Shown: positions 21,001 to 23,266 of the stretch, one piece after another | Position numbering within the stretch: the stretch's first letter is position 1 | Layout: every line of letters begins with the position of its first letter | NCBI RefSeq assembly: GCF_045037415.1 | Contig: NZ_CP173438.1 | Strand: one strand, 5' to 3' | Length of the DNA stretch: 64,000 nt | Source of the DNA: Escherichia coli | Lineage (GTDB): Bacteria > Pseudomonadota > Gammaproteobacteria > Enterobacterales > Enterobacteriaceae | Program-made: the position numbers

Positions 21001-23266
21001 TACGCTTGCTAATTTACTGAAACTCAGCGTCTGTCGACGGAGATTCGTCCGGGCCCTGATACAACAAGGGCAAGAAAACCACCCGAAATACAGATATTCT
21101 TATAAAAATGGATCATATTTCCATGTGCAAGTTCAGCTGGCATCGTCCAGAATGCGTGTCCAAGAAATGAAGCAAGCACGGTATACAGGCACAGAATAAT
21201 GCTCACTGGCCGGGTGAAAAAACCAAAAACAATCATTAATGCTCCAACGATTTCGACAAGGACCACTATTGCTGCAGTAATCGCCGGAAATATAAGCCCA
21301 AGAGAGGCCATTTTATCGATAGTGCCAGTGAATGATAGCAGCTTGGGAACGCCGGATATCATATAAAGGCATGCCAGCATCAGACGGGCAAGGAGCAACA
21401 ATGCCGACGTGTAATTTCCCATATTAAAATACCTGATTTTATCCACTATCAATGCTCAGTCTCCTTGTTTCTGATAAAGCCCTGAGCCAAATCCTTAAGT
21501 GTACGAGCACCACTCAGTAACATTGCCGTCCTCAGTTCCGTCTTCAGGTGCTCAATGACACCGGCAACGCCCCCGACACCACCTGCTGCGATGCCATAAA
21601 GAACAGGACGTCCGACCGCAACAGCCGTTGCCCCAAGAGAGATAGCCCTTACAACATCAATCCCCCTGCGAATACCGCTGTCAAAAATGACCGGAACTTT
21701 GTGCCCGACTCTTGCAGCAACTTCCTGCAACTGGCTGATGGCAGAAGGAACACCATCAATCTGGCGACCACCATGATTAGACACCTGGATGGCATCTGCT
21801 CCTGCATCAATGGCAACCACTGCATCCTCACCCCTGAGGATGCCCTTGACAATGACTGGCAGCCCGGTGATTTTTTTTACAAACTCAATATCAGCCGGGG
21901 TCAGCTCAACTTTTTGGTTAAAAAAATCACCTTTGCCACCGTAACGGGGGTCATGATTACCGAACGTCGCTCCTGCAGGGAAAGGCGAGCTCATGCTGAG
22001 AAAAGCATCACTTGTCCCGGGACCAAGCGCATCCGCTGTGATAATAATGGCTGAATAGCCTGCCGCTTTTGCACGCTCCAGTAAACTTCGGGTCACACCG
22101 GCATCCGCGTTAAAATACAGCTGGAACCATTTAGGTCCTTTACTGGCTTTTGCAATATCCTCCAGAGAGCGGTTGGATGCCCCTGATGATTCATAAAGTG
22201 CCCCGGCCTTTTCTGCACCCGCTGCAGCAATCACCTCCCCTTCCGGATGGACGAACATATGCGCGCCCATAGGTGCTATCAGCAGGGGATGTTCCAGATG
22301 ATGGCCCAAAAGGTCAGTCCGGATATCAATGCTGTGGGCAGCAACTCCACTGAGTCGGTGAGGTAACAAAGGATAATCACTGAATGCCCTGCGGTTCTCA
22401 TGATACGTCCACTCATCTCCAGCACCATGAGCAATATATGCATACGCAGCTTCCGTCATCACATCTTTTGCTGAAGTCTCCAGTCTGTCCAGACTGATGA
22501 TATGAAGAGATTTGTTGGTCGATGTATCAGCATGTCCAGACGTTTTACTGATGATATGTGCCGTTGAAGATGAGATATTTTTGGCAAGGGCCGGTGCAGC
22601 TGACAGCCCTGCGGCAGATATTCCTAAAACGGCATTCTGAATAAAATTACGTCGGGAAAGAGGCATAATAAGCTCCATATATTATAAATAAGCCAGGTCT
22701 CCCTGGCTTATAATAATCATGCCACGCCCTGAAGCGGGTTGGTGTTGAAGGTATAAAGGAAAATTTTCCATTCACCATTAATTTTACTGAGGACAAAAAC
22801 TTCACGGTTCAGGTCAATAATGGTTTTCTGCTCTTTAAAGTTCGTTACAACAGAACCCACATGGTGGTGAGTGCGGACAACCGCGGTATCTCCGTTGATC
22901 CAGATAGAGTCAAACGCAAAATCGGTCTCAAACTTTTCACGCTTGAACAGATCATCGTACTGCCCCTGGCGTTTTTCTGTATTGTCAGCCGTCAACTTAT
23001 CATTCCACTGGGAATAACTTTCATCAGCAAACAGGCCCAGGATGGTTTTTGTATCCCCGGCATTCAGTGCGTTCTGATACTTGATTATCGTGTCATACAC
23101 GTTCTTCTGCTCAGTAGCAATCTTACTGAAGTGGTTTACTGAATTTGGCCACCTGAACAGAGGTGATATGCTCACCTCAGAACAACACAGGTGCCATAAT
23201 GAAAAAAAGAAATTTCAGCGCAGAGTTTAAACGCGAATCCGCTCAACTGGTCGTTGACCAGAATTA

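Follow-up and report, generated by a model that had tools for sequence, protein, structure and literature searches.

A predicted Tat-exported FMN-dependent enzyme and its DoxX neighbour in Escherichia coli, in an operon interrupted by ISEc52

Why would an Escherichia coli strain carry, directly beside a DoxX membrane-protein gene, a flavoenzyme of the FMN_dh family that appears to be built for export? The window analysed here is a stretch of 64,000 nucleotides from contig NZ_CP173438.1 (RefSeq assembly GCF_045037415.1). A sequence-only reading of it had proposed an accessory periplasmic module for oxidizing a 2-hydroxy acid, composed of a Tat-exported alpha-hydroxy-acid oxidase and a DoxX protein, with a secreted NTF2-like gene upstream and a divergent TetR regulator. 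Both the enzyme gene and the DoxX gene lie where that reading had placed them (Table 1). The locus is absent from K-12 and occurs in 354 E. coli genomes, about 6.5% of complete genomes, and it is carried on a uropathogenic island, where fimbrial and toxin genes flank it.

Table 1. Features of the flavoenzyme-DoxX locus, with positions counted from the first letter of the window.
Feature	Position	Strand	Basis or remark
DoxX-family inner-membrane protein, 142 aa, TTG start	21024-21452	minus	Pfam PF07681, 9.4e-19
FMN_dh flavoenzyme, 405 aa	21449-22666	minus	Pfam FMN_dh, 1.3e-108
Twin-arginine signal peptide, residues 1-28, MPLSRRNFIQNAVLGISAAGLSAAPALA	22583-22666	minus	TIGR01409; predicted cleavage before K29
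NTF2-like (YybH-family) 3' fragment, codon 48 onwards, without start codon and signal peptide	22717-23126	minus	comparison with UTI89
ISEc52 (IS3 family), 1250 bp, ends TGAAGTGG...CCACTTCA	23127-24376	plus	RefSeq annotation of identical sequence
NTF2-like 5' fragment; Sec signal peptide MKHFIATAVMASSLLFGSNALA, then ASSS...	24377-24518	minus	
Native divergent control region	24519-24687		sigma-70-like promoter 24658-24631 (minus); consensus match
14-bp palindrome GGCAGACGTCAGCC, putative TetR operator	24595-24608		consensus match
TetR/AcrR-family regulator, 213 aa	24688-25329	plus	RefSeq annotation

The flavoenzyme is encoded by an ORF that spans positions 21449-22678 on the minus strand. Its probable start is the second ATG at 22666 (MPLSRRNF...), which is preceded by a GGAG 6 nt upstream and is identical to the RefSeq start. 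The match to Pfam FMN_dh (PF01070) covers residues 70-403 and model positions 1-349 of 350. The AlphaFold model has a mean pLDDT of 82.6, with low confidence at residues 9-49, and adopts the TIM-barrel fold of lactate and glycolate oxidases (Foldseek TM-score 0.8-0.9). Its top fold match is PaLCTO 6r9v (TM-score 0.80 by query, 0.87 by target), an entry that represents the A94G mutant of PaLCTO. Profile and fold together identify a real FMN_dh family member, which is predicted to bind FMN and oxidize a 2-hydroxy acid. The best NCBIfam match, L-lactate oxidase TIGR02708, reaches 308.9 bits against a cut-off of 645.5 and falls below the equivalog threshold, as does the LldD model NF033901 with 200.4 bits against 550. 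No experimental work on the flavoenzyme or its clade was found in the literature on Tat-exported or periplasmic FMN_dh enzymes, DoxX with this enzyme, or UPEC lactate oxidase. The clade is a well-delimited, widespread, and uncharacterised branch of the much-studied FMN_dh family.

At its N-terminus, the flavoenzyme has M-P-L-S-R-R-N-F-I-Q followed by NAVLGISAAGLSAAPALA and K29. With 19.0 bits, this sequence passes the curated cut-off of 16.7 of NCBIfam TIGR01409 (TAT_signal_seq), and it combines the Tat features S-R-R-N-F-I-Q, an 18-residue hydrophobic stretch (mean Kyte-Doolittle 1.4), and A-L-A before the lysine. R5 and R6 are kept in 31 of the 31 aligned homologues of alignment A1 (51-79% identity). 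In a set of 119 homologues, the twin arginines are found in 107-108; in ten of the remainder these columns are empty, and some of the ten can be seen to begin farther downstream. Because all full-length homologues examined have the twin arginines, export would be a trait of the whole clade. The N-terminal extension is without counterpart in cytoplasmic relatives, which begin at about query residue 50, and the proposed Tat signal therefore withstands comparison with homologues. Predicted export of the folded, FMN-loaded enzyme is the natural reading of such a conserved signal. A Sec signal or an uncleaved membrane anchor would also account for an extension that is fairly hydrophobic and has no basic residue ahead of the cleavage site, and relatives with Sec signals exist. 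This is highly improbable, however, given the conservation of the S/T-R-R-x-F/L motif across the clade, the score above the curated Tat cut-off, and the expectation that a TIM-barrel enzyme with non-covalent FMN folds before export.

The claim that enzymes of this family are normally cytoplasmic is too strong, as exported FMN_dh enzymes form a recurrent minority. Of the 142 closest full-length representatives (50% identity), a strict Tat-like filter retains 6, and relaxing the motif search brings in about 10 more. A lactate-oxidase-type gene of Salmonella encodes a Sec signal (MKTHHLIRVVASLVMLATSGLAYA). Tat and Sec signals have already been noted on two assayed enzymes (Tsvik et al. 2022, PMC9670274), which is the only mention of signal peptides on FMN_dh enzymes in the literature searched.

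The active site of the flavoenzyme contains H298, K274, D212, Y184, and R301, equivalent to His265, Lys241, Asp174, Tyr146, and Arg268 of L-lactate oxidase (LOX), and these His, Lys, Asp, Tyr, and second Arg residues are kept in 118-119 of the 119 homologues. The other carboxylate-binding arginine (LOX Arg181, glycolate oxidase Arg164) is missing, and S219 occupies its position in the E. coli protein. Within the clade (n = 119), this column holds Ser in 79 members, Pro in 39, Asn in 1, and Arg in none, whereas Arg is found in 19 of 20 aligned outgroup sequences (Lys in the remaining one), which are mostly distant cytoplasmic relatives among the matches listed from an A1 scan of genome contigs with the generic VSNHGGRQ pattern; the Photorhabdus Tat clade is among those with Arg. 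The clade also has a near-invariant GNHDPxxGGxG loop (in full, F-G-N-H-D-P-x-x-G-G-x-G-x-F-x-x-Q-K), which corresponds to the most variable part of lactate oxidases. Since the Arg181 equivalent is lost and this loop stands in its place, the substrate may not be lactate. G134 replaces LOX Ala95. Phe replaces Tyr40 in most clade members, and together with the missing Arg181 equivalent this counts against assured classical 2-hydroxy-acid binding.

The simple 2-hydroxy-acid substrate of the sequence-only reading is thus uncertain: Arg301, His298, Tyr184, and Asp212 are retained, but one of two carboxylate-binding arginines is gone. Alternatively, the clade may not serve free lactate or glycolate, the arginine loss and the new loop having retargeted the enzyme to another periplasmic substrate. 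A candidate is the product of a secreted hydrolase of the metallo-beta-lactamase (MBL) fold, perhaps a hydroxy acid split from an ester or a lactone, and in E. coli the NTF2-like protein would stand in for this first step. The MBL-fold hydrolase, which has a Sec signal, is the usual neighbour of the enzyme elsewhere (7-8 of about 14 distinct contexts), and its presence favours retargeting along with Ser or Pro in the Arg181 column of 118 clade members and the fixed loop in a region that otherwise varies. Conversely, a 2-hydroxy acid stays the simplest substrate for the retained residues, and Lys252 or His238 of the new loop could substitute for the lost arginine. The only models that the hydrolase matches are generic metallo-beta-lactamase and SoxH-related ones, on which grounds naming its function was abandoned. 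Retargeting is rather unlikely, though it carries appreciable weight.

The flavoenzyme had also been labelled an oxidase, a label that is not established, as most newly tested relatives are strict dehydrogenases (Tsvik et al. 2022, PMC9670274). Most of these enzymes, including two with signal peptides and PaLCTO, have negligible oxygen reactivity and are good at reducing benzoquinone, and within the lactate-oxidase cluster a single clade accounts for the reactivity with oxygen (Tsvik et al. 2022, PMC9670274). By analogy, the flavoenzyme is most probably a dehydrogenase that reduces a quinone-type membrane acceptor rather than oxygen. Oxidases and dehydrogenases are not separable by sequence; Gly134, at first considered a sign of a dehydrogenase, is not diagnostic, since the equivalent residue in the dehydrogenase PaLCTO is Ala. 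A true periplasmic oxidase would instead use oxygen as electron acceptor and form extracytoplasmic hydrogen peroxide that serves in competition or signalling, with DoxX either protecting the membrane or unrelated. This would suit the best NCBIfam match, an L-lactate oxidase model at 309 bits, and the lone position of most clade members, which have no obvious acceptor gene nearby. It is nevertheless unlikely, as that score is far under its cut-off, both signal-peptide enzymes tested are dehydrogenases (Tsvik et al. 2022, PMC9670274), and one clade context, a soil contig with the gene order cytochrome b561, MBL hydrolase, and clade enzyme, includes a potential acceptor gene.

PauLDH of Photorhabdus australis is a proteobacterial FMN_dh enzyme that, like the flavoenzyme, has an N-terminal extension with a predicted Tat signal, and it acts as a strict dehydrogenase in vitro (Tsvik et al. 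2022, PMC9670274). It belongs to a different clade: the Photorhabdus homologues L004 and L007, taken as its representatives, carry RR signals and are 42-43% identical to the E. coli flavoenzyme, but they keep the Arg181 equivalent (GGNRE), Ala95, and Tyr40 and lack the GNHDP loop. None of the Photorhabdus loci examined contains DoxX.

SsLDH, an enzyme from an enteric bacterium assigned to 'Shigella sp. FC1655', likewise bears a signal peptide. This soluble L-lactate dehydrogenase has FMN as its only cofactor, uses DCIP and 1,4-benzoquinone as electron acceptors, and reacts with oxygen at 0.07% of its maximal dehydrogenase activity (Tsvik et al. 2022, PMC9670274). It is probably a different protein from the flavoenzyme, since its signal is predicted to be Sec and a matching Salmonella-type gene exists. 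SsLDH falls in the lactate-oxidase cluster with PaLCTO. The Salmonella Sec-signal gene, which adjoins a YceI gene, encodes a protein that shares 55% identity with PaLCTO, retains the arginine, and fits the SsLDH description, whereas the flavoenzyme is only about 40% identical to PaLCTO. No member of the flavoenzyme cluster bears the name Shigella. None of 5,426 complete E. coli genomes contains the Salmonella-type gene, an observation that speaks against SsLDH being of this type.

Aerococcus viridans L-lactate oxidase and Pediococcus PaLCTO have the same TIM-barrel fold as the flavoenzyme (TM-score about 0.8-0.87, 36-39% identity) and share its catalytic His, Lys, Asp, Tyr, and second Arg. Unlike it, they are cytoplasmic, lack a signal peptide, and have Arg181 and a long variable lid loop. 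Yeast flavocytochrome b2, a sequence relative of the flavoenzyme (about 1e-46), is an FMN_dh enzyme of the mitochondrial intermembrane space that feeds the respiratory chain rather than oxygen. It relies on mitochondrial import and contains a fused haem b5 domain as a built-in acceptor, whereas the flavoenzyme has no haem domain.

The DoxX gene directly follows the enzyme gene, as originally described, and its TTG start overlaps the enzyme stop codon by 4 nt. RefSeq calls a shorter protein of 132 aa at 21024-21422, with a start 26 nt farther downstream; the Klebsiella orthologue conserves the longer form. The intergenic gaps in the operon are 50 nt between the NTF2-like and enzyme genes and -4 nt between the enzyme and DoxX genes, and the latter two are probably co-translated. 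Hydropathy analysis of DoxX places hydrophobic segments around residues 23-33 and 54-95. The protein also matches Pfam MauE, while among NCBIfam models it best matches a copper-binding RiPP maturation protein; its match to Pfam DoxD PF04173 is insignificant (E = 0.75).

Quinone coupling has its precedent in the DoxDA thiosulfate:quinone oxidoreductase of Acidianus. DoxDA belongs to the same DoxX/DoxD membrane-protein superfamily as the DoxX protein here, as does E. coli YqjF, whose gene adjoins a glutathionyl-hydroquinone reductase gene. No DoxA-like gene is annotated at the locus, which sets it apart from DoxDA-type thiosulfate:quinone oxidoreductases. No DoxX protein is known to take electrons from a flavoenzyme.

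The enzyme-DoxX pair recurs on Klebsiella and Enterobacter IncF plasmids, with 79% identity for the enzyme and 62% for DoxX, and plasmid tblastn matches within the enzyme clade are mainly to Klebsiella IncF plasmids. The 62% identity to the DoxX beside the Klebsiella plasmid enzyme is full-length and compares with 37% to K-12 YqjF. Among 5.8 billion proteins, no close relatives of this DoxX were found outside E. coli and Klebsiella, and its lineage is not seen without the enzyme. The proposed pairing therefore holds in the E. coli/Klebsiella lineage but is absent elsewhere, as it appears in only 2 of about 14 distinct contexts of the clade. Because DoxX is missing from the other 12 or so, the enzyme does not need it in general.

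These contexts also bear on whether DoxX takes part in electron transfer at all. Its adjacency could be irrelevant, and DoxX could be an independent stress or maturation protein that co-travels on mobile DNA. This possibility is a substantial one, if still short of even, as it accommodates the absence of DoxX from most clade contexts, the varied roles proposed for its relatives (the copper-binding RiPP maturation and MauE matches), and the mobile and mosaic nature of both the E. coli and Klebsiella loci. It is harder to reconcile with the 4-nt start/stop overlap in E. coli, with a pair that has outlasted divergence to 62% and 79% identity in two lineages, or with a DoxX lineage found exclusively beside the enzyme.

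The NTF2-like gene is the first gene of the operon and is split by ISEc52 after codon 47, which parts the signal peptide from the domain. The ISEc52 junctions were mapped by blastn against UTI89, and a duplicated 3-bp target (TAC) lies on either side of the element, at 23124-23126 and 24377-24379; the transposase is frameshifted and antisense to the operon. The intact UTI89 allele encodes 182 aa, with an AlphaFold pLDDT of 85, a Foldseek match to ketosteroid-isomerase-like structures at 8e-10, and weak matches to Pfam SnoaL_2 and DUF4440 (0.003-0.005). This allele is of the secreted type that had been described upstream of the enzyme, but in the window only the 3' part adjoins the enzyme gene. 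On an unrelated contig, a 68%-identical homologue directly follows a 61%-identical enzyme. In Neisseria zalophi and Serratia, the homologues stand alone, away from the enzyme, which rules out the NTF2-like protein as an obligate partner.

The TetR regulator is likewise divergent from the operon in strains without the insertion, such as UTI89, but not in this window. It has sub-threshold matches only, to many NCBIfam TetR models. A promoter scan found no excess of sites over shuffled sequence, and the single site in the control region is a lead only. Because ISEc52 splits the first operon gene, the enzyme and DoxX genes are cut off from the promoter, operator, and TetR. The operon is thus broken in this strain; the module is probably silent or misregulated, with both the enzyme and DoxX coding sequences intact.

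The best explanation, which is given about an even chance, is a horizontally acquired accessory operon for a periplasmic oxidation step. In the native order, TetR would be divergent from the secreted NTF2-like gene, followed by the Tat-exported flavoenzyme and then DoxX. Judging from its family, the flavoenzyme would fold and bind FMN in the cytoplasm, and the conserved signal suggests that Tat would then carry it over the inner membrane, with cleavage after Ala28. In the periplasm, it would take two electrons from an (S)-2-hydroxy acid or a close alpha-hydroxy compound through His298, Lys274, Asp212, Tyr184, and Arg301, and, acting most probably as a dehydrogenase, pass them to a quinone-type membrane acceptor rather than oxygen. 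DoxX may be its membrane partner in the E. coli/Klebsiella lineage, which is the weakest step, and TetR would repress the operon until a small-molecule inducer arrives.

A broader proposal is that the clade, defined by its Tat signal, loss of the Arg181 clamp, and GNHDPxxGGxG loop, is a new functional class of periplasmic flavoenzyme. This class would oxidize neither lactate nor glycolate but another compound, such as a hydroxy acid that the co-encoded secreted zinc hydrolase liberates in the periplasm. Its electrons would reach the quinone pool via lineage-specific membrane partners, with DoxX in this role in E. coli and Klebsiella and cytochrome b561 in one soil bacterium. This proposal is speculative and unlikely to hold. 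If true, a redox partner would be defined for DoxX for the first time, and an extra respiratory electron donor would be available to extraintestinal E. coli and to Klebsiella with the plasmid.

For pathogen biology, the value of the locus is limited. Among the 354 E. coli genomes with the locus, about 100 have it only in part, which suggests weak selection, and frequent truncation or IS disruption, as here, argues against a major virulence role. In pathogenic E. coli, the gene would extend the set of Tat substrates by an FMN enzyme. Little is understood about the common DoxX proteins, and a lineage found only beside this enzyme offers a rare handle on their function. For enzymology, the combination of a conserved export signal and a remodelled substrate pocket leads to clear, testable predictions.

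The sequence-only reading placed a twin-arginine (Tat)-exported flavoenzyme of the FMN_dh family ahead of a DoxX gene, and both its coordinates and its account of the two genes are confirmed. The enzyme gene begins at an ATG at 22666, which is also the RefSeq start, with GGAG 6 nt upstream. Residues 1-28 read MPLSRRNFIQ-NAVLGISAAGLSAAPALA; Lys29 and a linker rich in Ser and Thr come next. Against the curated NCBIfam twin-arginine model, the N-terminus scores 19.0 bits, above the cut-off of 16.7. Homologues at 51-79% identity are numerous in a set of 5.8 billion proteins and come from Klebsiella, Dryocola, Acidovorax, Halomonas, Paracoccus, Psychrobacter, Neisseria zalophi, Campylobacter pinnipediorum, Pasteurellaceae, and rhizobia. 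A simple pattern locates the motif near the N-terminus of 100 of 120 homologues, and several others have visibly truncated start calls. An alignment of 31 sequences shows no variation at R5 and R6, and 107-108 of 119 homologues have the pair. Solved cytoplasmic relatives align to the enzyme only from about residue 50, and its AlphaFold model has low confidence at residues 9-49 and high confidence in the barrel. Predicted Tat export is therefore a conserved property of the clade formed by the enzyme and these homologues. That the extension is instead a Sec signal or a membrane anchor is unlikely, given the curated-model score and the retained arginines; the core idea of an exported flavoenzyme holds as a prediction.

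The fold is that of L-lactate oxidases, which are also the closest structures, headed by the Pediococcus enzyme PaLCTO (TM-score 0.80 by query and 0.87 by target; 39% identity). The enzyme falls below the curated cut-offs for both L-lactate oxidase (309 vs 645.5 bits) and LldD (200 vs 550 bits). Tyr146, Asp174, Lys241, His265, and Arg268 of Aerococcus L-lactate oxidase (LOX) are retained as Y184, D212, K274, H298, and R301. The second active-site arginine, LOX Arg181 (Arg164 in glycolate oxidase), binds the substrate carboxylate in this family; its position is Ser219 here. No clade member has Arg at this column, and 118 of 119 have Ser or Pro; of the 20 outgroups aligned, 19 have Arg and one has Lys, and the Arg-bearing ones include another Tat-bearing clade, further removed, found in Photorhabdus and a Hyphomicrobiaceae genome. 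Where lactate oxidases have a long, variable lid loop, the clade has a shorter, near-invariant F-G-N-H-D-P-x-x-G-G-x-G-x-F-x-x-Q-K. LOX Ala95 corresponds to Gly in every clade member, and LOX Tyr40 to Tyr in E. coli and Klebsiella and to Phe in 103 of 119. Clustering at 50% reduces the clade to a handful of representatives (P0044, P0136, P0137, P0152), each with the RR pair and a GPGxSD-type sequence. Because Arg181 is lost, the lid loop is replaced, and the members cluster compactly, the clade is best described as a compact subfamily with a predicted remodelled substrate pocket. Judged by these residues, lactate oxidase is no guide to its substrate.

The premise that FMN_dh enzymes are normally cytoplasmic is overstated: exported forms are a recurrent minority, and export is less unusual than claimed. 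Among the 142 nearest full-length 50% representatives, six carry Tat-like signals under a strict filter and about 10 more under a looser motif search. Tsvik et al. 2022 (PMC9670274), who expressed 42 new family members, remark briefly that the Photorhabdus australis enzyme has a Tat signal and one from 'Shigella sp. FC1655' a Sec signal. Both are strict dehydrogenases; the latter reduces DCIP and 1,4-benzoquinone, with oxygen reactivity at 0.07% of its maximal dehydrogenase activity, and the paper's conclusion is that most members of the family have been wrongly annotated as oxidases and are dehydrogenases (PMC9670274). These data weigh against the less likely alternative that the clade enzyme is a peroxide-forming oxidase, and favor a quinone-reducing enzyme. 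The 'Shigella' enzyme and the clade enzyme are probably different proteins. A better fit to the published description of the former is a Salmonella gene directly downstream of a YceI-family gene, which has a clear Sec signal, 55% identity to PaLCTO, and the arginine; against this match, a gene of that type is absent from all 5,426 E. coli genomes that are complete. The Salmonella product would be exported unfolded as an FMN enzyme, raising the question of how the flavin is acquired. A literature search found nothing on the localisation, physiology, or partners of any exported FMN_dh member.

DoxX directly follows the enzyme gene as claimed; read from a TTG start, it overlaps the enzyme stop codon by 4 nt, and the Klebsiella orthologue shares the longer N-terminus that this start gives. 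Across roughly 14 different contexts examined for the clade, the commonest neighbour is a secreted MBL-fold zinc hydrolase (7-8 contexts) of ~318 aa with a Sec signal and an HAHADH motif; a LysR regulator is usually close by. This association and the lost arginine are compatible with a non-classical substrate tied to the hydrolase; the retained catalytic residues fit an (S)-2-hydroxy acid. DoxX occurs in two contexts (E. coli; conjugative IncF plasmids of Klebsiella and Enterobacter), a secreted NTF2-like (YybH) protein in two (E. coli; one unrelated contig, L087), and cytochrome b561 in one, a soil contig. A three-sequence DoxX profile found no further adjacent DoxX in ~97 loci; two soil contigs have weaker matches, at distances of 1 kb and 3.5 kb from the enzyme. 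Such sparseness would suit an incidental adjacency. Taking DoxX as the starting point, the association is strict: close relatives of the locus DoxX are found in the database only in E. coli and Klebsiella, and the two, at 62% identity, both still adjoin the enzyme. Each pairing, with DoxX or NTF2-like protein, has two independent occurrences and neither is obligatory, because each is found in only two contexts and NTF2-like homologues also stand away from the enzyme, as in Neisseria zalophi (79% identity) and Serratia. In L087, the gene just downstream of an enzyme with 61% identity encodes an NTF2-like homologue with 68% identity.

Features of the window and of comparison loci
Feature	Location	Strand	Details
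AS-pc02 (RF02876)	11883-12059	+	Rfam, 56.8 bits; papI-papB region
Four-gene chaperone-usher fimbrial operon	15492-20448	-	major subunit, chaperone, usher, adhesin-like subunit; directly downstream of DoxX
DoxX-family gene	21024-21452	-	Pfam 9.4e-19
FMN_dh flavoenzyme, 405 aa	21449-22666	-	Pfam FMN_dh 1.3e-108, residues 70-403
ISEc52	23127-24376		1250 bp; 3-bp target duplication TAC
5' NTF2-like fragment	24377-24518		signal-peptide-coding
TetR gene	24688-25329		
YedYZ/MsrPQ-like pair	43436-44777; 44918-47110	-; +	adjoins two-component system
Low-GC (0.32-0.37) cassette	49340-55032	-	receiver-domain (response-regulator) protein, 986-aa ATP-binding protein, DNA cytosine methyltransferase
Contact-dependent inhibition locus	57335-62661	-	cdiB-like transporter, filamentous haemagglutinin-type CdiA, CdiI immunity gene
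Intact NTF2-like allele	L002 7694-8242	-	
Surroundings of Klebsiella enzyme-DoxX pair	L090 1351-11787		K. pneumoniae IncF plasmid NZ_CP047635.1; ZigA, second COG0523-type GTPase, ABC transporter, small gene annotated only as transcriptional repressor
YceI-family gene and lactate-oxidase-type enzyme	L091 4336-6125		Salmonella enterica NZ_CP110932.1
Cytochrome b561, secreted MBL hydrolase, clade enzyme	L107 649-5121		soil metagenome contig Ga0137407_10004085, in this order; L106 is the same sequence

The Klebsiella plasmid region is read as a zinc-starvation-type island; it also contains an unannotated 362-aa ORF read as FolE2-like. This island, the zinc hydrolase partner seen in other contexts, and the His-rich NTF2-like protein jointly hint at a metal connection. 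Beyond the enzyme on the soil contig are a convergent LysR gene and, divergent from it, a DoxX-like gene ahead of an MFS transporter and an ORF for a putative homogentisate dioxygenase.

The NTF2-like protein of strain UTI89 has 182 aa and a Sec signal peptide; all 30 aligned family members carry signal peptides, and modelling confirms the fold. The alignment's invariant residues (an R-T-H-H-H motif, W87, D119, D151-x-N-R-E155, Y171, N174, P177, Q179) look like a putative catalytic or metal-binding site. Of the secreted NTF2-like gene and divergent TetR regulator reported upstream, the former is not intact in the window: alignment with UTI89 shows that ISEc52, its transposase antisense to the operon, splits the NTF2-like gene after codon 47 and displaces TetR. 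The enzyme gene is now parted by 1.25 kb from the 5' NTF2-like fragment, TetR, and the native control region, which has one promoter-like site and one palindrome. The enzyme and DoxX frames are intact, and their expression in the window has probably been lost or deregulated. The identical insertion occurs in 42 complete genomes. The locus is found in 354 of 5,426 genomes, only 250 of which have at least 80% of it; in many, what is left is DoxX plus the enzyme gene's 3' half, adjoining a two-partner secretion gene. P0126, an E. coli protein of 338 aa, joins an IS-derived peptide to the enzyme near residue 85, which indicates a further deletion after ISEc52 insertion in at least one genome.

A 5-kb stretch at the locus is 100% identical to O25b:H4-ST131 and related extraintestinal E. 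coli chromosomes. In the RefSeq annotation of an identical record, it lies within a pathogenicity island, with the pap operon and the second, four-gene fimbrial operon on one flank and IS elements, cnf1, and hlyCABD on the other. The fimbrial operon, presumably the F17-like Ucl operon, keeps its place beside DoxX in all three annotated E. coli copies (p4A, UTI89, strain 488). The YedYZ/MsrPQ-like pair, the island's second periplasmic redox module, is likewise decayed, with an internal stop in the molybdopterin oxidoreductase and a frameshift in the cytochrome b gene. The low-GC cassette is possibly a system of defence or restriction-like type. Other E. coli strains have a truncated copy of the enzyme gene directly abutted by a two-partner secretion gene. 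An Rfam scan of the window found only AS-pc02 over the gathering threshold, and a tRNA search of the window found none.

The signal, the catalytic residues, the packing of the operon, and its disruption by the IS are read directly from the sequence; for an intact operon, we infer the chemistry, electron acceptor, and role of DoxX as follows, as the most likely mechanism. The enzyme would bind FMN in the cytoplasm, be exported by Tat with cleavage after Ala28, and oxidise an (S)-2-hydroxy acid or related alpha-hydroxy compound in the periplasm. Electrons would pass to a quinone-type acceptor at the membrane, with DoxX as the partner in enteric bacteria and expression gated by TetR. The enzyme-DoxX module is a variant on known enzymes rather than a new kind of system, the window copy is damaged, and its biological importance for the source strain is doubtful. 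For enzymology, the combination of a clade-wide Tat signal and a lost arginine is worth following, and the locus DoxX lineage offers a useful way into the function of DoxX.
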